NCBI RefSeq assembly: GCF_056746865.1
Contig: NZ_CM163382.1
Reading direction: 5' to 3' (one strand)
DNA: 64,000 nucleotides
The notes under the pieces: generated by a model
The model's input: the letters and a program-made list of their open reading frames with translations, nothing else
What the model was told of the DNA's origin: nothing
Databases searched by the model: none
Shown here: piece by piece, positions 10,648 to 47,175 of the stretch
How the letters are laid out: every line of letters starts with the position of its first letter
How positions within the stretch are numbered: the stretch's first letter is position 1
Program-made: the position numbers and the translations under genes

Positions 10648-10723
10648 GCCGATATAGCTCAGTTGGTAGAGCAGCGCATTCGTAATGCGAAGGTCGGAGG
10701 TTCGACTCCTCTTATCGGCACCA
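10648..10723 (+). tRNA. thrW: tRNA-Thr (anticodon CGT)
   Basis: 76 nt cloverleaf: acceptor GCCGATA/TATCGGC, D-arm GCTC/GAGC, anticodon loop TTCGTAA, T-arm GGAGG/CCTCT, 3' CCA. Confidence 0.95.
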
Positions 10724-10850
10724 TTTAAATCAAGTAGTTACCTCACATTCAATTACACCACATTTTCCTCCTGTGCCGTATTTGTGCCATTGTAACCCTG
10801 GCAATTCATCAAAATACTGTTCTGACATCAGGCAGTGCAGGTGCAGACAT

Positions 10851-11090
10851 TTAAGCCAATTGCTGCCGCCATTCCTTGACGTGGTCAATCAGGGCGCGGA
10901 GCTTTGGTGCAATATTGCGACGCTGTGGGAAATACAGATAGAAGCCCGGAAATTGTGGAAGAAAGTCATCAAGCAGCGATACAAGCTTACCGCTTTCAAT
11001 ATATGGCCTGAAAGTTTCCTGAGTGGCAATTGTTATGCCTGCGCCGGCAAGAGCCAGCCTCAACATCAGACGCAGATCATTCTGCTAATC
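10851..11090 (-). pseudogene. 3' remnant of a LysR-family regulator gene
   Basis: 71 aa ORF resembling only the C-terminal region of the other LysR proteins in this window (GKL..L..F.P.FPGFYLY); in-frame stop upstream, no N-terminal HTH. Confidence 0.5.
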
Positions 11091-11165
11091 CCACCGATGC
11101 TTCGGTCTGGAGTGGTAAATTAATATTGGACACAGTTTTATTTTCTCTCTTTTTCGAGGGCTATA

Positions 11166-11434
11166 TGAACAGGAAGAATACATCCCTAAGCGGTTAATGC
11201 TGGCGTAATCAATAGACCAGCATTAATCACGGATGATTACCAATCAGACAGATATGGTTAAATCGTCGAATTCATAATTAATACTTTTTCTTACGCCGCT
11301 GAACAGCTTGAAAAGGATACATATTTTAAATATCAGTGAAGTGAACAGTTTATTGCCGTTATTAATAGAGATGGAGGAATAAATACGCGTATTCTACTAT
11401 TGCAACAAAAACAACGATGATGATCAGTTTTCAT
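11166..11434 (-). repeat. degenerate paralogous copy of the ykgO-3'-end/terminator and ykgR region (compare 31042-31195 and 31875-31993)
   Basis: two blocks of roughly 80-85 percent identity by eye; contains a remnant of the last ~12 ykgO codons and a frameshifted ykgR-like 33-codon ORF; ykgM and most of ykgO are missing. Confidence 0.6.
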
Positions 11435-11641
11435 AATGAAGTAACCTGACAGATATAAAAATGTTGATTGAGGCTCAATGCCCGGATGAAGGTTGTCGAG
11501 GGAGCCAGGTGGTTTTTTCTTTTGGGTGATCTCCATTGCTGGATAGTCCCCTCTTTCTCGCTCAAAGCAGACCCTGGAATTGAACGCAGAGGGACTACCT
11601 GACACAATTTTGCACAGTGAAGAGTCGGTCGTTATTAACGT

Positions 11642-12526
11642 TCAGATTTTCAATGTATCAATGACCATCCGCAGGGCGGGGGAGACGTTGCGATGAGGGT
11701 AATAGAGAAACAATCCCTCCATTCGCAGGCTGTAACGCTGCAACACCCTGATAAGCTTACCGTGTTCTAAATCATCCGCGACCAGTTCAACAGGAACATA
11801 GGCCAATCCGAGGCCCAGCCGGGCTGCTTCTGCTTCCATATAGCTGTCGGATAAGGCCCATTGCCCTTCAGGGCGATGAGTGATTTTTTTATCATCCTGA
11901 TTGAGTTCCCACTGGTATACGCTGCCGTCGGCAAACTGATAGGCGATACAGGGATGCGCCTTTAAATCCGCCGGGGTTTGCGGAAAACCATAGCGACGAA
12001 AATGTTCCGGAGTCCCCACAATTGCCATCTCCATATCGGGCGTGATGCGTACCGCGACCATACCCTGGCCGACTTCAGGCCCCAGGCGGACACCTGCATC
12101 GAATCTTTCCTCGATGATATCGACGAACCGGCTCTCATTTATCAGTTCAAGCCGGATATCAGGATATCGCTGTTTAAATACCGCCAGCTTTGGCAGCAGG
12201 CATTTATCAATCGCGTGCTGGCTGGCATTGATACGCACCGTGCCGGAGGGCGTCTCTCGATAGTGCGCCAGCGTGGCAAGCCCAAGATCTAACATTTCAA
12301 ATCCAGATGCCGTCTTCTGGTAGAGCTGCTCGCCTGCTTGTGTCAGCGACAGTTTACGCGTGGTGCGCACTAGCAGCTGGACGCCGAGCCTTTCTTCAAG
12401 CTCGCGAACAGAACGGCTGACTCCTGACTGAGCAAGACCCAGCCGCTGAGCCGCTGCGGTAAAGCTGCCTTCCCGCACCACCTGCATAAACAGGTACAGC
12501 TCGTTGTAGTTCTCCCTTTTCGCCAT
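11642..12526 (-). CDS. LysR-family transcriptional regulator
   Basis: 294 aa; N-terminal HTH (FTAAAQRLGLAQSGVSRSVRELE) and LysR substrate-binding domain; divergent from the hydrolase gene. Confidence 0.88.
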   Translation of the reverse strand: MAKRENYNELYLFMQVVREGSFTAAAQRLGLAQSGVSRSVRELEERLGVQLLVRTTRKLSLTQAGEQLYQKTASGFEMLDLGLATLAHYRETPSGTVRINASQHAIDKCLLPKLAVFKQRYPDIRLELINESRFVDIIEERFDAGVRLGPEVGQGMVAVRITPDMEMAIVGTPEHFRRYGFPQTPADLKAHPCIAYQFADGSVYQWELNQDDKKITHRPEGQWALSDSYMEAEAARLGLGLAYVPVELVADDLEHGKLIRVLQRYSLRMEGLFLYYPHRNVSPALRMVIDTLKI

Positions 12527-12712: not shown

Positions 12713-13849
12713 ATGAAAGCCTTCACCCGAACGCTAAAAACCGCGATGCCGACCATGCTGCTTTTCGCATCATTAAGTGGAGTCACGACAATGAGTTATG
12801 CTGATTCAACCAATCCTAATGCCCCTGTGTCCATGACAGATAAATGGGATAAAACGTTCGCCGAGAGCCAGAAAGTCGATCACCGTAAAGTCTCGTTCCC
12901 GAACCGATATGGCATCACCTTAGTGGGCGATCTTTACCTGCCTAAAGACCGTGGCGATCGCAAGCTGGCGGCGATTGCGGTCAGTGGGCCATTTGGCGCG
13001 GTGAAAGAGCAATCCAGCGGCTTGTATGCGCAGACGCTGGCGGAACGAGGGTTTGTTACCCTGGCGTTCGATCCTTCTTACACCGGGGAAAGCGGCGGCT
13101 ATCCGCGAAACGTCGCCTCACCGGATATCAACACTGAAGATTTCAGCGCGGCGGTGGATTTCTTAGGGCTGCAAAAAGAGGTAGATCGCAACCGTATCGG
13201 GCTGCTCGGTATTTGTGGCTGGGGCGGCATGGCGCTGAACGACGTGGCGATGGATACCCGCGTTAAAGCGGTAGCTACCAGCGTGATGTATGACATGAGC
13301 CGGGCGATGGGTCATGGTGTGGGGGATGGCAAAGACCGTTATTCTACCGCCGACCGTCGTGCCGTTCTGCAATATCTGAATGAACAGCGCTGGCAGGATG
13401 CGCAGAGCGGAACGTTCGCTCACGGTGGTCATGATATTAATGTCGATAGCAACGGCAAGGTCAGTGCGGGCGAGCGCATTCTGCCAGAAACGCTGCCGGC
13501 AAATCCTCATCCGGTACTGAAAGAGTTCTTTGACTACTATCGCATGCCGCGCGGCTTCCACGAACGTTCCGTTAACTCTACCGGGGCGTGGACGGCAACG
13601 ATGCCGCTGTCATTTATGAATATGCCGCTGTTGAGCTACGCCAGTGAAATCACCATTCCGACGCTGATTGTGACCGGTGAGAAAGCACATTCACGCTATT
13701 TTGCTGAAGATGCTTACAAGGCGGTTGGCAGTAAAGACAAAGAGTTGGTGGTGGTACCAGGGGCAAATCACGTGGACCTGTACGATAACGTGGCCGGAAA
13801 AATACCTTTCGCGAAGTTCGAACAATTTTTCCAGACCAAACTGAAATAA
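12713..13849 (+). CDS. secreted alpha/beta-fold hydrolase, dienelactone-hydrolase-like (Cys in the nucleophile elbow)
   Basis: 378 aa from ATG 12713; signal-peptide-like N-terminus; GICGWGG elbow; paralog of the 33884-34804 product. Confidence 0.8.
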   Translation: MKAFTRTLKTAMPTMLLFASLSGVTTMSYADSTNPNAPVSMTDKWDKTFAESQKVDHRKVSFPNRYGITLVGDLYLPKDRGDRKLAAIAVSGPFGAVKEQSSGLYAQTLAERGFVTLAFDPSYTGESGGYPRNVASPDINTEDFSAAVDFLGLQKEVDRNRIGLLGICGWGGMALNDVAMDTRVKAVATSVMYDMSRAMGHGVGDGKDRYSTADRRAVLQYLNEQRWQDAQSGTFAHGGHDINVDSNGKVSAGERILPETLPANPHPVLKEFFDYYRMPRGFHERSVNSTGAWTATMPLSFMNMPLLSYASEITIPTLIVTGEKAHSRYFAEDAYKAVGSKDKELVVVPGANHVDLYDNVAGKIPFAKFEQFFQTKLK

Positions 13850-13924: not shown

Positions 13925-15118
13925 ATGTCGACACTAAGCCAAACACTATCACCTCATCATCAGCGCGCATACTGGGGCGGTATTTTTGCCATGACCCTGT
14001 GCGTGTTTGTGCTGATTGCTTCTGAATTTATGCCCGTCAGCCTGCTCACGCCGATTACCCGCGATTTAGGCGTGACGGAGGGGCTTGCAGGGCAGGGGAT
14101 TGCTATCTCCGGCGCGCAGGCGGTTCTGACCAGCCTGACGCTTTCAACGCTAGCTGGAAAGATGAATCGTAAGTTCCTGCTGCTGGGGATGACGGTTCTG
14201 ATGGCCGTATCGGGGCTTATTATTGCGCTGGCTTCCAGTTATCTGATGTATATGGTCGGTCGTGCGATGATTGGTGTGGCTATTGGCGGATTCTGGTCGA
14301 TGTCAGCGGCAACGGCGATTCGTCTGGTGCCGCAGCATCAGGTCACGCGTGCGCTGGCAATTTTCAACGCCGGTAATGCGCTGGCGACGGTCGTGGCCGC
14401 ACCGCTGGGAAGCTATCTGGGGGCTACGGTCGGATGGCGAGGCGCTTTCTTGTGCCTGGTGCCCATCGCGGTTGTCGCCTTTATCTGGCAGTGCATCAGC
14501 CTGCCAAGCATGGATGCGAATAAAAGCCACACTTCATGTGGCGCGGTATTCCGCTTATTTAGCCGCCGCATGGTTGTGGTCGGCATGATAGCTTGTGGCC
14601 TGTTTTTCATGGGGCAGTTTGCGCTATTCACCTATGTGCGCCCGTTTCTGGAGTCGGTGACACGGGTTAATTCCTTAGGCTTGTCGTCGATTTTGCTGAT
14701 TATCGGCGTGGCCGGTTTTATTGGCACGCTGGTTGTTTCGGCATTTCTCAACAGAAAATTCTACCCCACGCTGATGGCCATACCCGGACTGATGGCCGTC
14801 ATTGCCATCGGTCTGATGCTTACCGGGCATCACGTCTGGACGGTCTCGCTGCTGTTAGGACTCTGGGGCATGCTGGCCACCGCCGCGCCAACCGGATGGT
14901 GGACATGGATTGCGCGTACGTTGCCTGACAACGCCGAAGCTGGAGGCGGGCTCATGGTCGCGGTGATTCAGCTCGCCATCGCCCTTGGATCAACGGCAGG
15001 AGGCATTGTGTTTGACCGCCTTGGCTGGCAGAGCACGTTTGCTATGAGTAGCGTGCTGCTCCTTTGCGCTGGCGTACTGACCTTTGTTACCGCACGCCAG
15101 AAGGCCGGTGCGCTTTAG
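13925..15118 (+). CDS. MFS-family transporter
   Basis: 397 aa, multiple hydrophobic helices, MFS-like pattern. Confidence 0.85.
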   Translation: MSTLSQTLSPHHQRAYWGGIFAMTLCVFVLIASEFMPVSLLTPITRDLGVTEGLAGQGIAISGAQAVLTSLTLSTLAGKMNRKFLLLGMTVLMAVSGLIIALASSYLMYMVGRAMIGVAIGGFWSMSAATAIRLVPQHQVTRALAIFNAGNALATVVAAPLGSYLGATVGWRGAFLCLVPIAVVAFIWQCISLPSMDANKSHTSCGAVFRLFSRRMVVVGMIACGLFFMGQFALFTYVRPFLESVTRVNSLGLSSILLIIGVAGFIGTLVVSAFLNRKFYPTLMAIPGLMAVIAIGLMLTGHHVWTVSLLLGLWGMLATAAPTGWWTWIARTLPDNAEAGGGLMVAVIQLAIALGSTAGGIVFDRLGWQSTFAMSSVLLLCAGVLTFVTARQKAGAL

Positions 15119-15298: not shown

Positions 15299-16255
15299 TC
15301 AGGACGACGGGGGCAGGCATGAATCCTCATCCTGATGGAGACGTACAGAGGCGACTTCTGCCAGCACGGAGAGTGCCAGAGTATGCGCATCCCGGGCTTT
15401 GGGGAATATCCCGACGGGTGCCCGGATTTGCGCTGTCTCCTCCCTGGACCATCCCAGCTCGTGGAGCTTTTGCAGACGTAAAGTGTGGGTTCGATAGCTG
15501 CCCAATGCGCCGAGATAAAAGGGTTTTGCTTCTCGCGCGGCCTGCAACACTGGCAGCTCCCGGTTGAGATCATGGCACAGCAAAATGACCGCCGTATCGG
15601 TATCGATCTGAGCGCTGGCTGAGGCCGGAAAAAGATCGAAGATATGGCTGTCATAGCCTGTGGCTGCTGCAAGACTCGCGGTTGCCTGCGCCTCAAGAGA
15701 ACGTCCGTAAATCATCAGACTGACGCATGGCCTGAACCCCACCTCAAAGCCATTGAGATTCCAGCCCGTCCGGGTTTGCGTGGGCAGGCACACCAGCGAT
15801 TGAGCTTGCGGATCGTAGCGCAGACCCGCCGGTTTTCTCTGTTCCAGGCGGTTCAGCACGGCGAGCAGAGGCTGTGCCGAGCGTAGTTTATGGAGCGTCA
15901 GCGTGATCCCACCGCCGCAGGGCAGAACGATGTCAAACCACGGCGAACCTTCGCCATAGCAAATTTCGCGATCGCGGCCTGAGCCCATCACCTCCAGCGC
16001 TTCAAAAGCGGCAGCGGCCTCCACGCAGCCGCCAGAGACAAAACCGCAGTAACGGCCATCTTCGCGCACCACCATCTGCGCCCCGAGCGGGCGCGCCGCG
16101 CCGCCGCGTATCTCCACCAGCGTCACCAGCACCGCTCCTTTACCGGACATTAGCGCCTCTACGGCGAAGCGCAGAATGGTCCGGTGGTCATCGGTGAGAA
16201 ACGCCTGCTCTGGCTTATGCCAGTGCTCGTCTTTGTCAAAAAGCGAGTATGACAT
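15299..16255 (-). CDS. paoD: molybdenum cofactor insertion chaperone (XdhC family) PaoD
   Basis: 318 aa; last gene of the pao cluster. Confidence 0.88.
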   Translation of the reverse strand: MSYSLFDKDEHWHKPEQAFLTDDHRTILRFAVEALMSGKGAVLVTLVEIRGGAARPLGAQMVVREDGRYCGFVSGGCVEAAAAFEALEVMGSGRDREICYGEGSPWFDIVLPCGGGITLTLHKLRSAQPLLAVLNRLEQRKPAGLRYDPQAQSLVCLPTQTRTGWNLNGFEVGFRPCVSLMIYGRSLEAQATASLAAATGYDSHIFDLFPASASAQIDTDTAVILLCHDLNRELPVLQAAREAKPFYLGALGSYRTHTLRLQKLHELGWSREETAQIRAPVGIFPKARDAHTLALSVLAEVASVRLHQDEDSCLPPSS

Positions 16256-16264
16256 TGTTCCTCC

Positions 16265-18463
16265 TTAAACCACATCCGGCAGTTTATCGAGCAGCTTATC
16301 CAGAGTGATGGGATAATCCCGTACCCGAATACCGGTGGCGTTATACACCGCGTTGGCGATAGCCGCGCTCACGCCGCACAGGCCCAGCTCACCGACACCT
16401 TTGGCCTTCATCGGGGAGGAGATGGGGTCGGTATCATCCAGGAAAATCACCTCCTGTTTTGGGATATCCGCATGAACCGGCACCTCATACCCCGCCATAT
16501 CGTGATTAACGAAGTAGCCCAAACGGTCATCCACCGCCAGCTCCTCCATCAGTGCCGCGCCCATGCCCATAGTCATTGCGCCAATGACCTGGCTGCGTGC
16601 GGTTTTCGGATTCAGGATGCGTACTGCAGCACACACAGCGAGCATACGCCGGACCCGAACTTCTCCCGTCGCGCTATGCACGCCGACCTCCACAAAATGC
16701 CCGGCAAAGGTCGATTGCTGGTACTCCTTGCTCAGTGTTCCGAATTCAATGCTCTCTTCCGCTGTCAGCCTGCCGCCTGCGGTGGCCTCATGTAGCGTGG
16801 CGCTTCGGGTACCGTTGGTAATCTTGCCGTCGGCAAACTGCGACTGCCCAGGATCAAACCCGACTGCCGAGGCAATCATTTCGCGAAGTTTCACACAGGC
16901 GGCGTAAACGCCGGAGGTGGAGGTATTCGCGCCCCATTGTCCACCAGAACCCGCAGAAACCGGGAAACTGGAATCGCCGAGGTGAACCGCAACCTGCTCC
17001 AGCGGTACGCCAAGCATTTCCGCTGCCGTCTGAGCCAGAATTGTGTAGCTGCCGGTGCCAATATCGGTCATGTCCGTTTCCACGGTAACGGTGCCGTTTT
17101 GTTCTAGGTGAACCCGAGCACCCGATTTTTCCAGCAGATTATTGCGAAAGCCCGCCGCAACACCGTGGCCGACTAGCCACTCCCCGTCGCGTACCTGTCC
17201 GGGTGTGGCGTTGCGCTGCTTCCAGCCAAATTTATCCGCTCCGGTGCGCAAGCACTCAATAAGCTGACGGCGAGAGAAGCGGCGCGTCGGGTCGGCGGGG
17301 TCAACCTGAGTGTCATTCAGGATGCGAAACTCGACGGGATCGATGCCTGCTTTTTCCGCCAGTTCATCGATCGCGATTTCGAGCGCCATCAGACCGGGGG
17401 CTTCGCCGGGCGCACGCATGGCGTTCCCTTCCGGCAAATCAAGCGTGGCGAGCCGCAGGCCGGTATGACGATTCGCCCCTGCGTAGAGTAATTCGCTTTG
17501 CTGTACCGCCGTTTCCGGCGTGCCGCCGGGCAGGTTTCCGGACCAGCTTTCATGTGAGATAGCAGTGATTTTCCCGCTCTGGTCGGCACCGATACGCAGG
17601 TGCTGAAGGGTGGCGGGGCGGTGCGTTGTGTTATTGGGAATAGTGGGGCGGGGGAGCATCACTTTAACCGGACGTTTCACCGCACGGGCGGCGAGGGCCG
17701 CCAGCAGCGCATCGCTTCTCAGGAACAGCTTGCCGCCAAACCCTCCGCCGATATACGGGGAGATAATACGCACATTCTCCACGGGCACTTTCAGCGTTTT
17801 TGCCAGATCGGTGCGGCACCAGTCAATCATCTGATTTGAGGTCCAGAGGGTAAGCTTATTTCCATCCCAGACGGCCATCGAGGCATGCGGCTCCATCGCC
17901 ATATGGCTCTGGTCCGGGGTCGTGTAGGTAGCATCAATCTTCACCGCAGCGGAGGTGAAAGCCCCGTCAAAGTCACCAACATTTTTATCGGGCGTGTCTT
18001 CCGGCGGCTGACTGACGGCCTGTTTCTCGTCCGCCAGGGAGTAAGCTCCTTTATTACGGCGATAGTGCGCCTGCACCAGCGAGGCCGCCGCTCGTGCCTG
18101 TTCGAAGGTCTCGGCCACTACCAGCGCAATGGCCTGATGATAGTGCTCAATAGTGGGGCCGGCTAACAGCCTGGCGGTGTTTTTGTCGCCTTTGCCGAGT
18201 GCCCCGGCGTTACTGGCGGTAATGACAGCCAGTACGCCCGGCGCTTTTTGCGCGGCGTCCGTATCAAGGGCGGTGAGGCATCCTTTGGCAATGGCGGAAC
18301 CGACGATATAACCATAGGCGGCGTTGGGAGCTTCTTCATACCATTCGTAGGCGTAGCGTGCCGTGCCGGTAGTTTTCAGCGGTCCGTCGATGCGGTCATG
18401 GGGACGACCGACAACCTTCAGCTGATCGATCGGGTTTTCCCCTGCGGGTTTATCAAATTTCAT
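16265..18463 (-). CDS. paoC: aldehyde oxidoreductase molybdopterin-binding subunit PaoC
   Basis: 732 aa xanthine-dehydrogenase-family large subunit; start overlaps paoB stop by 4 nt. Confidence 0.92.
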
Positions 18464-19416
18464 GCCTGTGCCCTCGCTTCAGCCAGTACGGAGGCAAGCG
18501 TTCGCTTCGCCAACAGGAGTTTAAAGGTGTTTTCAGCGGTGGGATGGGCGCTGGCGAACAGCGCGTCATACACGGCCTGCGCCCCCTGGGATAGCTGAGC
18601 ATTCGCAGCCTCAATGCGCCAGGGCTTATGTGCTACTCCGCCCAGCGCGACGCGCCCGCTGCCGTCAGGCTGAATAATCGCCGCGACCGATACCAGGGCA
18701 AAGGCGTAGGAGGCGCGATCGCGCACCTTACGGTAAATATGTTTTCCGCCGAGCGGCGGAGGTAACGTCACCGCAACGATAAGCTCACCGGGAAGCAGGG
18801 CGGTTTCAATGTGCGGCGTTTTCCCCGGTGGGTGATAAAAATCAGCCAGTGTGATACTGCGAGTCTTTCCCTCCGGCGTGATGGTTTCCACCACCGCATC
18901 CAGCAACCGCATTGCGACCGCCATATCGCTCGGATGGGTGGCAATGCAGGCTTCGCTTACGCCTACCACCGCGTGCTGACGGCTAAAGCCTTCAAGTGCC
19001 GCGCAGCCGCTCCCGGGCAGGCGCTTATTGCAGGGCTGATTGGTGTCGTAAAAATAGGGGCAGCGCGTGCGCTGGAGCAGATTACCTGCGGTGGTTGCCT
19101 GATTACGTAACTGACCAGACGCGCCAGCGAGCAGGGCGCGGGAGAGTACCGCGTAATCACGACGCACGCGCTCGTGAGCCGCCAGGTCGGTGTTCCGTAC
19201 CAGTGCGCCGATGCGCAGCCCACCCGCGTCGGTCACTTCAATCTTATCGAGCCCGAGGCCGTTCACATCGATAAGGTGGGTGGGCGTTTCAATTTCCAGC
19301 TTCATCAGGTCCAGCAGATTGGTCCCGCCCGCGATAAATTTTGCGCCGGGTACGCGCTGAGCGCTAAGTGCCGCCTCGGCCGGGGTGTTCACTCGTTCAT
19401 AGGTAAACGCCTTCAT
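18460..19416 (-). CDS. paoB: aldehyde oxidoreductase FAD-binding subunit PaoB
   Basis: 318 aa; overlaps the paoA stop. Confidence 0.92.
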
Positions 19417-19903
19417 GATTTTATCTCCCCCGCAGCGTCTTCAATGGCGGCAAGGATGTTAGCGTATGCTCCACAGCGACAGATGTTGCCGCTCATACGT
19501 TCACGGATCTCATCGGCAGTTCTTTCTGGAGGGGAAACCAAATCGACCGTGACGTGACTGGGAATGCCGTCCTGAATCTCTTTTAGCACCGCTACTGATG
19601 AGCAAATTTGCCCGGAGGTGCAGTAGCCGCACTGGAAGCCATCATGCTTGATAAAGGCCGCCTGCATGGGGTGAAGATTCTCTGGTGAACCCAGGCCTTC
19701 AATGGTGGTGATCTCGGCCCCCTGATGCATGACTGCAAGCGTCAGGCAGGCATTAAGCCTGCGACCATTGACCAGCACGGTACAGGCTCCGCACTGTCCG
19801 TGATCGCAACCTTTCTTGGTACCGAACAGATGCAGATTTTCACGCAAAGCGTCCAGTAGCGTGGTTCGGGTATCCACCTCAAGCTGCTCGGTTTTGCCGT
19901 TCA

Positions 19904-21162
<1,259 letters not shown>

Positions 21163-21769
21163 CACCTTAAGTGTCAGGGGCATTATCTCTGGCGCGGGTG
21201 TAGCTGCCGGAACGCTTGCTGCAAGCGTAGAATGAGGATAAACCACGGCGGTCGCCGCCGTTGCGGCGCTGACTTTAATCAGATCGCGACGGGTCAAACT
21301 AAAATCGTGCGGCTCGTGCTTCCCAACCCGATTATCTTCGGGGTATTCGCCTTGGTTGCTCATACCAGGCCTCCGGTATTCTAAAGGGGAAAATAAGAGA
21401 GCGTTGCGAGAGTGCTGATGCTTTTTTAAACGTTAAGCATAGTCGGTGAGAGCAGGAGGATTATTCTTAAAACGCGAATGCAGCTATGAGCCCGGCTAAT
21501 TAATTCATATTCGCCGATGACGGGAGCTCGTTTATTGCTTTAGTTGTGCGATGCAAAAACCGATAAGGAAACCTGTGATTGTCAGCTCTGCATCACCCTA
21601 CAAATCTTTGTCACTTCTAACATAAAAATAGGGAGAAATGATGGTGCTTATATTCATTGGCGATTAGGAAACTATCTTGTTATACAAAACAATACAGTTC
21701 TTTACATTTGTCTTGTTTTATGAATACTCCTGAAGAGGTGTATAACATAATGGTACAAGCAGGGTAGAT

Positions 21770-30747: not shown

Positions 30748-31153
30748 TCAGTCATCTGTGCGCGTTACTCTAACTGGCACTCGAACGTCGGCGATGGGGT
30801 TACCGGTGGATCAGGCCGTTCCTGTGGCGTAAACGTTTTTATGTCAGTACCAACAGATTTACCACATTTATCATCTTAACCGTTTGAGTGTAAATGCAGG
30901 CTGCGTCGCAAAGGGAGGAAACTGAGTGGCGTGTTCAGTCTAAAAGAGAGTTGATGCCAGCATACAGGGCGCACCTGGTCAACAAGTCAACATTAATATA
31001 ATGGAATATTCGGAGAGAAACGTCAGGCAGTTGACCTTAAATGAACAGGAAGATACATCCCCAGGAAAATTAATGCTGGTGTAATAAATACACCAACATT
31101 AATCCGGTCTGATTATTAATCAGACAAATATCGTTAATTCGTCGAATTTTGAA

Positions 31154-31294
31154 TCAACGTTTTTTCTTACGACCCTGAACGGCCTTAAAACGTGGATTAG
31201 ATTTACAAATCACATATAGCCGTCCTTTTCGCTTCACAATCTGACAGTCTGGATGGCGTTCTTTTGCGGTACGCAGAGAGTTAAGGACTTTCAT
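31154..31294 (-). CDS. ykgO: 50S ribosomal protein L36 paralog (zinc-independent type)
   Basis: 46 aa [46 protein letters not shown] read directly; absent from the ORF track (<60 aa); start overlaps ykgM stop (ATGA). Confidence 0.85.
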
Positions 31295-31557
31295 CATGCC
31301 CCCTTTTTCGTGCTAACAAAACGACCAAAACGTTGGGTGAATCGTGCAACATTTCCTTCTGATGCCACTGTTCTCAGCTTCCCTGTATAGAACGGGTGCG
31401 ATTTAGAAGAGACATCAATTGTCACGTACGGATACGTTACGCCATCCAGCTCAATCTCACGGTCTGTTTTGATAGTCGAGCCGATTTTAAAGTACTCATC
31501 AACACTGGTGTCATGGAACACCACAGTACGATACTCAGGATGGATATTGGGTTTCAT
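31294..31557 (-). CDS. ykgM: 50S ribosomal protein L31 type B
   Basis: 87 aa ([23 protein letters not shown]...); no Cys zinc ribbon, consistent with the zinc-independent paralog. Confidence 0.9.
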
Positions 31558-31568
31558 CATTTTTACCT

Positions 31569-31586
31569 GTTATGTTATAACATAAC
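31569..31586. promoter_or_regulatory. Zur box upstream of ykgM
   Basis: perfect 18 bp palindrome GTTATGTTATAACATAAC immediately upstream of the ykgM start. Confidence 0.7.
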
Positions 31587-31921
31587 CGTAAAGATACATG
31601 CTCATCCGGATCATTTCAACACCCAATCCCTGTGACCATTTGTGGTATGTGGAATTTCCTCAACGGGGAAGTCTGGCATTGTTAACAGCCATTGGCTGAC
31701 GCTCCCATAAACGCCTGGATGAGTGATTGATGATGGTTTCGCTGAGAGTATGGATTTTTCGAGAATGGAGGTTATCTCCACTTTACTGGCCGATGATTTA
31801 TCGCAGTATGATTGATTACCTGACAGCGTGTATTCCTCTCCCACGGATATAATAATTACTTACAAAAAGGGAGAGGATGCATATTTTAAATATCACTGAA
31901 GTGAACAGTTTATTGCCGTTA

Positions 31922-32023
31922 TTAATAGAAATGGAAAAATAAATAGGCGTATTCTACAATTGCGACAAAAACAACGATATTAATCAGTTTATGACTGATT
32001 TGTTGTACTTTATTCTCTTTCAT
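31922..32023 (-). CDS. ykgR: small membrane protein YkgR (33 aa)
   Basis: MKENKVQQISHKLINIVVFVAIVEYAYLFFHFY read from the minus strand; hydrophobic core; not in the ORF track. Confidence 0.6.
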   Translation of the reverse strand: MKENKVQQISHKLINIVVFVAIVEYAYLFFHFY

Positions 32024-44733: not shown

Positions 44734-45521
44734 ATTTTCGTTATGTCCTGGGCCTTAAGTGTATCAAAAACAGCAAGTCCCAAGGCAAAAGCACTGATAG
44801 CGTCTGCTTCATTGCCCCAAAAATAGAGAGGTTTCAGTCCTACATTATTAATGAATTTTTTGCATAAGTGATATCAAAATCCACATACTAATTTGAGGTT
44901 ACGTTTTAACGTAGACTCATTGTTCATACCTAATGGAGGGACTGACAGTGGAATTTTCCGTATTAAGTAACAATCTGAAAATGCCGATGATGGGATTTGG
45001 TGTTTTTCAGGTTACCGATAAAGACGTGTGCAAACAGTCAGTGTTGAATGCTATCCGCACGGGTTATCGACTCATCGACACTGCAGCGGTATACGGTAAT
45101 GAAGATGCCGTCGGTGAAGCCGTTCGTGAAGCTATATCTGAAGGTTTATGTACCCGAGATGAGTTATTTATAACGTCTAAATTGTGGGTGCAGGATATGT
45201 TGAATCAGGATACGGCAAAAGCAGGTATTGAAGCATCATTAAAAAAATCGGGACTAGAATACTTCGACCTCTATTTATTGCACCAGGCTATGCGCGATTA
45301 TTTCAGTGCGTGGCGTGCACTCGAAGATGCCTATGAAGAGGGCAAATTAAAAGCAATTGGGGTTTCCAATTTCTATCCTCATGTTCTGGCGAACTTTTGT
45401 GAAACGGTAAGAGTTAAACCGATGGTCAACCAGGTCGAGTTGCATCCCTATTTTGCCCAACCAGAGGCGCTGGCAACCATGAAGTATTATAACGTGCAGC
45501 CTGAAGCATGGGCTCCGTTAG

Positions 45522-46716
<1,195 letters not shown>

Positions 46717-47175
46717 TTAGGTGGTGGACGACATAAACCCTTTGAAAATAATCTGCTTCAGAGTATTGCAGATGCCCATCAAAAATCGATTTCTCAAGTC
46801 ATTCTGCGTTGGAATATTCAACGGGGAGTGGTCGTTATTCCGAAATCGACACATCAACAGCGTATCGAAGAAAATTTTGCTATCTGGGATTTCTCACTGA
46901 CAGAGAAAGAAATGGCACAAATTAGTTCGCTTGATTTGGGTTATGTTGGGGAGTCGGTAAAACATTTTAATCCTGAATTTGTTCGTGGTTGTCTTGCTGT
47001 AAAAATACATGATTGATATTAATCATGTATTTTACCTGAGACGACAAGAATCTTTTAACAGGGGAGTGATATTGATCTTCACTCTGTCATATCTCCGGTA
47101 ATATGGCGTCAGGCTTCATCATCAGAAAGGGGGCCTGACGCCTGAAAAAGTGAACAACAGACAGTGTTCGGATTA

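Follow-up and report, generated by a model that had tools for sequence, protein, structure and literature searches.

Gene order and features of the thrW region

The window, i.e. the whole stretch of 64,000 nucleotides that was analysed, is 100% identical to the chromosome of E. coli 118UI (NZ_CP032515.1), and window position 1 corresponds to position 324884 of that record. According to the RefSeq annotation of 118UI, the gene order is proB-proA-thrW, a truncated LysR gene (LysR'), a truncated ykgR gene (ykgR'), an intact LysR gene, a hydrolase, an MFS transporter, paoDCB(A') and ISEc31. These are followed by yagU, ykgJ, ecp and ykgL-ykgO-ykgM-ykgR, onward to bet and yahB. Strains 118UI and NMBU-W13E19 have been reported as the closest references of an ST69 isolate (PMC7952442) and, as both carry the window allele, the window lineage is probably ST69.

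The truncated and the intact LysR gene are referred to as LysR1 and LysR2; the two share only about 30% identity. Features are as follows, L003 being the thrW locus of an O157:H7 genome.

10648-10723, plus strand: thrW, tRNA-Thr(CGU), unoccupied attB (ARAGORN, Rfam)
10724-10850, no strand: chromosomal flank of attB (B' side), colinear with BL21 and attR flanks
10851-11081, minus strand: 3' remnant of LysR1, 76 codons plus stop, yagP homologue (Pfam, PGAP)
11080-11083, no strand: deletion junction 11081/11082, ..cagatcaTT/ctgctaat.. (alignment to O157:H7)
11082-11161, no strand: intergenic DNA; in the undeleted arrangement it follows a 92-aa ORF (O157 L003, 9430 onward)
11162-11314, minus strand: ykgO fossil comprising the 3' end and the terminator hairpin (78.6% to 31038-31190)
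11314-11430, minus strand: fossil of ykgR and the sequence just downstream (90.6% to 31874-31990)
11431-11641, no strand: AT-rich spacer with no assignable feature, conserved with O157, TUM18530, PCN033 and MSB1_6C
11642-12526, minus strand: LysR2 (WP_001119037.1), intact LysR-family regulator
12791-13849, plus strand: alpha/beta hydrolase, intact, absent from K-12 and BL21
13991-15118, plus strand: MFS transporter, intact, absent from K-12 and BL21
15299-21363, minus strand: paoD, paoC and paoB, intact; paoA, split by ISEc31 (118UI annotation)
31154-32023, minus strand: true locus with ykgO (31154-31294), ykgM (31294-31557) and ykgR (31922-32023)

The sequence-only reading had described the genes beyond the remnants as an intact LysR-hydrolase-MFS-paoDCBA series. 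This holds for LysR, the hydrolase, the MFS transporter and paoDCB, but paoA is cut by ISEc31. Its pieces are paoA' (19413-19904), the transposase of ISEc31, an IS3-family element (19941-21154), and a piece with the TAT signal (21163-21363). Because paoA is split, the aldehyde oxidoreductase PaoABC is, judging from the sequence, probably inactive in this strain. Some further genes of the window are affected in this or in other strains. IS5 has inserted into an aldo/keto reductase gene (44948-47016, 118UI RefSeq annotation) and ykgL (30894-31119) is annotated as frameshifted in 118UI. The genes for an rtcB-like RNA ligase and prfH (184-1934) are intact in the window while being truncated or frameshifted in MSB1_6C and DETEC-P649.

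The thrW attachment site is unoccupied

Few tDNA sites in E. coli are used for integration as often as the tRNA gene thrW (PMC7545054). The sequence-only reading had named thrW as the site of CP4-6 in K-12, and this is correct: intF, yagN and yagM adjoin attR in K-12, and phage attP records are labelled "type CP4-6". The target of elements integrated at thrW (CP4-6, Sp1 of O157 Sakai, PAI III536, the Vat island and P22/SfV-type phages) is this tRNA gene, with the att region found in the window. However, none of the hallmarks of these elements (integrase, attR repeat, cargo) is found in the window. While thrW is occupied by CP4-6 in K-12, it is empty here.

ARAGORN and Rfam predict a single tRNA-Thr(CGU) gene. 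When the thrW 3' end was searched as a 23-mer and up to 3 mismatches were tolerated, the 64-kb window gave a single hit, against a chance expectation of none, and comparison of the 68-nt att region with the window by blastn-short (word size 7) returned only chance matches of at most 12 nt. Neither search detected an attR-like direct repeat of the thrW 3' end in the window. With the exception of the LysR remnant, the small ORFs within 10724-11640 have no match in PHROG or Pfam. In the 53 kb downstream of thrW there is no integrase or phage gene in the RefSeq annotation of 118UI, ISEc31 and IS5 being the only mobile elements. Rfam, applied at E-values up to 1, reported for the interval only the tRNA and a spurious antisense plastid match on it. 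A sigma-70-like promoter was not found in the interval, and its sole terminator-like site (11498-11519) is at chance level. The flank from 10724 to 11081 is colinear with that of BL21, which has an empty site, and with the attR flanks of K-12, O157 and TUM18530. The sequence-only reading of thrW as an attachment site that is followed by gene remnants, with no duplicated tRNA 3' end, integrase or phage gene, is thus borne out.

The LysR1 remnant and the 2,056-bp deletion

The LysR fragment next to thrW (10851-11081, 231 nt) proved to be real and encodes the last 76 residues of LysR1. It matches positions 137-207 of the 209 positions of the Pfam domain LysR_substrate (E-value 5e-10) and is devoid of HTH_1. 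Of a functional LysR protein we required HTH_1 and a complete LysR_substrate domain; full-length LysR1 has both domains and the remnant has neither of them in full. The remnant has kept neither start codon nor promoter. No stop codon interrupts its reading frame, in which an ATG at 11066 would start an ORF of 71 aa (10851-11066).

The undeleted arrangement is found in O157:H7 (genome G5295, locus L003). There, the attR flank of thrW is followed by a complete LysR1 gene (299 aa, HTH_1 and LysR_substrate), beside which are a divergently oriented SDR oxidoreductase (240 aa, adh_short) and an ORF of 92 aa. After the 92-aa ORF, the locus continues with a ykgR fossil identical to that of the window, LysR2, the hydrolase, the MFS transporter and paoD. 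Window position 11081 corresponds to position 7373 of L003 and window position 11082 to 9430, so that exactly 2,056 bp (L003 7374-9429) are missing from the window. The only microhomology at the junction is "tt", 2 nt that are common to both parental sites. Both sides of the junction are chromosomal, with no foreign DNA between them. A distance of 358 bp separates the left breakpoint from the end of the tRNA gene, and the att-proximal flank is untouched.

Because of this distance and because the flank is colinear, the event is an internal deletion of resident DNA and not an att-site event. A full-length syntenic LysR1 gene within colinear flanks, as expected for a pseudogene that has arisen by internal deletion, exists in O157:H7 and also in the divergent Escherichia genome E69 (locus L007). 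In this step, which is recent and lineage-specific, a single microhomology-poor deletion of 2,056 bp, presumably illegitimate and RecA-independent, took the first 223 codons of LysR1 together with the divergent SDR gene and the 92-aa ORF. The last 76 codons of LysR1 remained beside thrW, and very probably neither the att site nor an integrase was involved.

In the sequence-only reading, the remnants had been proposed as a possible old integration/excision scar. A scar of this kind would result from imprecise excision of a former thrW element or from a deletion promoted by an island. Such a scar could be expected at a site that is so heavily used for integration (PMC7545054), and island-linked deletions do occur on this flank in PCN033, MSB1_6C and DETEC-P649. 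In addition, a variant in the T-stem of the window thrW is exactly that of the attP of phage yong1, and a cluster of SNPs follows thrW at 10743-10763 (both are described below). However, the 358 bp of native flank between tRNA end and breakpoint are intact and colinear, and element DNA, an integrase fragment or an att repeat was not found in the window. Site-specific excision acts within the tRNA gene and not at a distance of 358 bp and 2.4 kb from it. The 2 nt of microhomology resemble what is seen in the deletions of TUM18530 and of the K-12 type, which also lie inside the flank. For a scar, we looked for a deletion that starts at the att core or for element DNA; the window has neither. PCN033 and MSB1_6C served as positive controls: their scars, with integrase remnants at the junction, are unlike the window. 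We consider the scar a very unlikely explanation of the remnants, which represent a clean deletion of 2,056 bp wholly inside the flank and an older, unrelated fossil.

The ykgO/ykgR fossil

The second remnant (11162-11430), which had been noticed from the sequence as a fossil of ykgO/ykgR, is real as well. When the window is compared with itself, the fossil matches the true locus in two blocks. The block 11162-11314 covers the terminator hairpin of ykgO, which is the inverted repeat at 11194-11226 of the fossil, and the last approximately 12 codons of ykgO. The block 11314-11430 corresponds to the last two thirds of ykgR together with sequence immediately downstream of the gene. At the true locus, the two blocks are separated by 684 bp that contain ykgM in its entirety, the larger part of ykgO and the promoter region; the fossil lacks these 684 bp. 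The coding sequence of the ykgR remnant (11362-11430) consists of the last 22 codons and the stop codon, KLIIIVVFVAIVEYAYLFLHLY-stop, which correspond to the end of intact ykgR, ...KLINIVVFVAIVEYAYLFFHFY-stop; a complete 33-codon ORF with a start codon is not present.

With the ykgM-ykgO (type B L31/L36 paralogues)/ykgR locus, the fossil thus has in common, at 78-91% nucleotide identity, the terminator and final codons of ykgO and 22 of the 33 codons of ykgR. It differs from the real locus in lacking ykgM, most of ykgO, the promoter region and the ykgR start, and in being presumably non-functional. Sequence comparison indicates that it arose as a partial copy of the ykgO-ykgM-ykgR locus 20 kb downstream and has since decayed. 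A large segmental duplication that includes the neighbouring genes was considered and rejected: LysR2 and the adjacent hydrolase have only 42% and 32% aa identity, respectively, to the LysR and hydrolase at the true locus. As these neighbours are only distant paralogues, the duplication was small.

The fossil is unchanged in O157:H7, PCN033, TUM18530, MSB1_6C and E69, a distribution that identifies it as older than the 2,056-bp deletion and unrelated to it. In this old step, which most probably preceded the diversification of E. coli, 684 bp from the middle of a partial copy of the ykgO-ykgM-ykgR region disappeared, as did the beginning of ykgR.

PGAP already flags both the LysR and the ykgR remnant as partial pseudogenes in 118UI. 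Neither of them is expected to be functional; they are ordinary pseudogenes of a known kind that are already annotated. In our preferred explanation, which we regard as highly probable, the interval is an unoccupied thrW site and its flank has decayed in two unrelated, ordinary steps.

Flank alleles across E. coli

The window represents one of at least five junction types of this flank, and at least four other rearrangements were encountered, two of them joined to integrase remnants. In TUM18530 and XH990, 1,041 bp are deleted (L003 7564-8604) with no microhomology at the breakpoints. In K-12 and BL21, a deletion of 6.1 kb (L003 7482-13610), with "ttatg" as microhomology, has joined truncated LysR1 to paoD. 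Given the 0-5 nt of microhomology and the absence of mobile-element sequence, these deletions and that of the window point to RecA-independent illegitimate recombination, for example by slippage or end-joining-like events, as the process that made them. In PCN033, an integrase remnant abuts the SDR gene midway along its length. In MSB1_6C and DETEC-P649, an integrase remnant together with an RT/AbiE islet is joined to what corresponds to window position 11200, and there is no attR. The deletions that adjoin the integrase remnants of PCN033 and MSB1_6C are deeper.

This islet (L088 20055-26435 in MSB1_6C; L089 in DETEC-P649) comprises the integrase remnant, an RNA-directed DNA polymerase of 1,069 aa and an AbiEi/AbiEii pair. 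It represents a defence islet that has become fixed, is accompanied by a deletion of the flank and is joined directly to the ykgO/ykgR fossil region.

The alleles were counted by BLAST queries with junctions and segments over 5,426 complete genomes. With a 120-nt junction query, the window junction was found in 179 of these. A number of 204 "window-type" genomes was discarded as inflated, since two pieces of matches of the TUM18530 type had been joined; the count of 179 replaces it. At least 60 genomes are 100% identical to the window over 1,141 nt, all of them with an empty thrW, so that the window allele is clonal. The allele of the 179 genomes probably arose only once. In 388 genomes, mostly O157:H7, 80% or more of the deleted segment is kept, while about 2,730 retain only a 108-nt stub of the K-12 type; the remainder is without a trace of the segment.

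The pseudogene yagP of K-12 is the closest known counterpart of the window remnant. Both are 3' fragments of LysR1 with no HTH, they are found at the same place by the thrW att flank, and PGAP annotates them in the same style. They differ in extent: the K-12/BL21 allele keeps 339 nt of the gene and loses 6.1 kb up to paoD, whereas the window keeps 231 nt and loses 2,056 bp. The fossil, LysR2, the hydrolase and the MFS transporter survive in the window, unlike in the K-12/BL21 allele. A search of the literature on yagP yielded nothing relevant.

In the window, in the K-12 type and in TUM18530, the deletions each stop short of the last 231-420 nt of LysR1, which raises the question of whether the tail is kept for a function, either as the 71-aa effector-domain peptide that could start at the internal ATG at 11066 in the open frame or as a cis element for thrW. 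However, the tail is kept in only 2,875 of the 5,426 genomes and is gone in the PCN033 and MSB1_6C lineages; retention in about half of the genomes argues against a conserved function. Neither a promoter-like site nor an RNA family was found in the interval. From the structure of LysR-type regulators, a 71-aa piece, about one third of the substrate-binding domain, is not expected to be a folding unit. We therefore hold a retained function to be exceedingly improbable, and explain the tail, like the rest of the flank, by ordinary decay. The repeated, independent losses suggest that the LysR1-SDR module is dispensable in most niches of E. coli.

Ancestral state and the LysR1-SDR cassette

LysR1 was also compared with a collection in which each of 100,044 species is represented by one genome. 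Among the matches listed there is a single Escherichia genome, E69. As the collection has one genome per species, E69 must represent a cluster distinct from typical E. coli. It carries an intact LysR1-SDR module together with the fossil at the same thrW flank, 89.5% identical to O157. The intact state thus predates the radiation of E. coli and the state of the window is derived. On the basis of these comparisons, we regard the intact LysR1-SDR-ORF92 arrangement as ancestral and the window as one derived allele.

The sequence-only reading had set against its own proposal the case that the arrangement of the window is the ancestral, universally conserved state, with a full-length LysR gene at the same place in close relatives. 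The key part of this case holds, since the full-length gene does occur there in relatives (the 388 genomes and E69). The arrangement of the window is, however, neither ancestral nor universal.

The next-best LysR1 matches are from Pantoea (89-90% aa identity), followed by Atlantibacter, Kosakonia and Phytobacter (82-86%) and by alpha-proteobacteria (about 75-77%). An SDR gene divergently adjoins the LysR gene in all 20 individually listed loci, and in 51 of 80 by a stricter criterion. Outside Escherichia, no tRNA gene was found near the LysR1-SDR pair in the nine loci scanned. The pair (L003 7143-8863; L008-L026) is kept from Pantoea to Paracoccus, Sinorhizobium and Bradyrhizobium at 75-90% aa identity, which is unusually high for such distances. 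Being kept as a unit at this level, it behaves as a conserved cassette, and LysR1-SDR is, on these comparisons, probably a horizontally mobile two-gene cassette of a regulator and an enzyme.

Such mobility means that the whole interval from thrW to paoD could still be the eroded cargo of a very old thrW island, a history that would be compatible with the last step of our preferred explanation. The tight conservation of the cassette from Pantoea to alpha-proteobacteria fits this view, as does the lack of Salmonella, Citrobacter, Klebsiella or a named non-coli Escherichia among the best 80 LysR1 matches. The interval is also dispensable, having been deleted repeatedly. However, neither an integrase nor an attR or a degenerate att copy was detected near paoD, the G+C content of the coding parts is normal (0.49-0.60), and the arrangement is already present in the divergent genome E69. 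An origin as island cargo is rather unlikely. The deletional decay of the flank in two steps, as proposed above, remains our preferred explanation of the remnants.

A T-stem variant of thrW

The thrW gene of the window deviates from the canonical sequence at one base pair of the T-stem. Pair 50:64 is G-C in place of the canonical U-A (10697 T to G, 10711 A to C), and the two changes are compensatory. A 40-mer with the variant occurs in 445 of the 5,426 E. coli genomes, once in each. Among phages, the only exact match is Hafnia phage yong1, where it represents the attP directly beside the integrase gene. About 108 other phage attP sites of the thrW type (P22, ES18, SfV, HK75, mEp and others) are canonical.

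What follows the variant differs between genomes, with at least three contexts encountered: the site is empty, or it is followed by an integrase remnant plus the RT/AbiE islet, or by the Vat island. In MSB1_6C, it precedes a yong1-like integrase remnant with 77% nucleotide identity to the integrase region of yong1. The integrase remnant of PCN033, 98% identical to that of MSB1_6C, sits behind a canonical T-stem. In CFE299, the variant precedes the Vat island as an internal att. This strain has a tandem occupancy of thrW (L090 3960-4110), where the attR of a TUM18530-type prophage abuts the Vat island. As this attR carries the variant 3' half, the prophage must have entered a thrW that already had the variant allele.

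Just downstream of thrW, five clustered substitutions plus an insertion of 1 nt (10743-10763) distinguish the window from the flanks of BL21, K-12, O157 and TUM18530. In the approximately 100 nt that follow there are only 2 differing positions, and the cluster may be a recombination patch. Together, the T-stem variant and the SNP cluster hint that the thrW site may not always have been empty. The variant could have been supplied by a phage, its 3' half surviving when the element was lost by homologous recombination between attL and attR. We judge this rather unlikely; the variant could equally be a native or recombined allele of a clade. If a phage did supply this half of thrW, it would be a genuine, though tiny, footprint of integration that is unrelated to the LysR remnant. 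Whichever its origin, the variant is independent of the LysR and ykgR remnants.

Implications for the thrW flank

In summary, the gene fragments beside thrW reflect the routine deletional decay of a dispensable LysR-SDR module and are not evidence of a lost prophage. The T-stem variant provides a small lead on how integrating elements may overwrite tRNA alleles. The thrW flank of E. coli is a multi-allelic deletion hotspot, for which the breakpoints of three internal deletions have been defined. Its alleles could act as lineage markers and they account for the origin of yagP in K-12.
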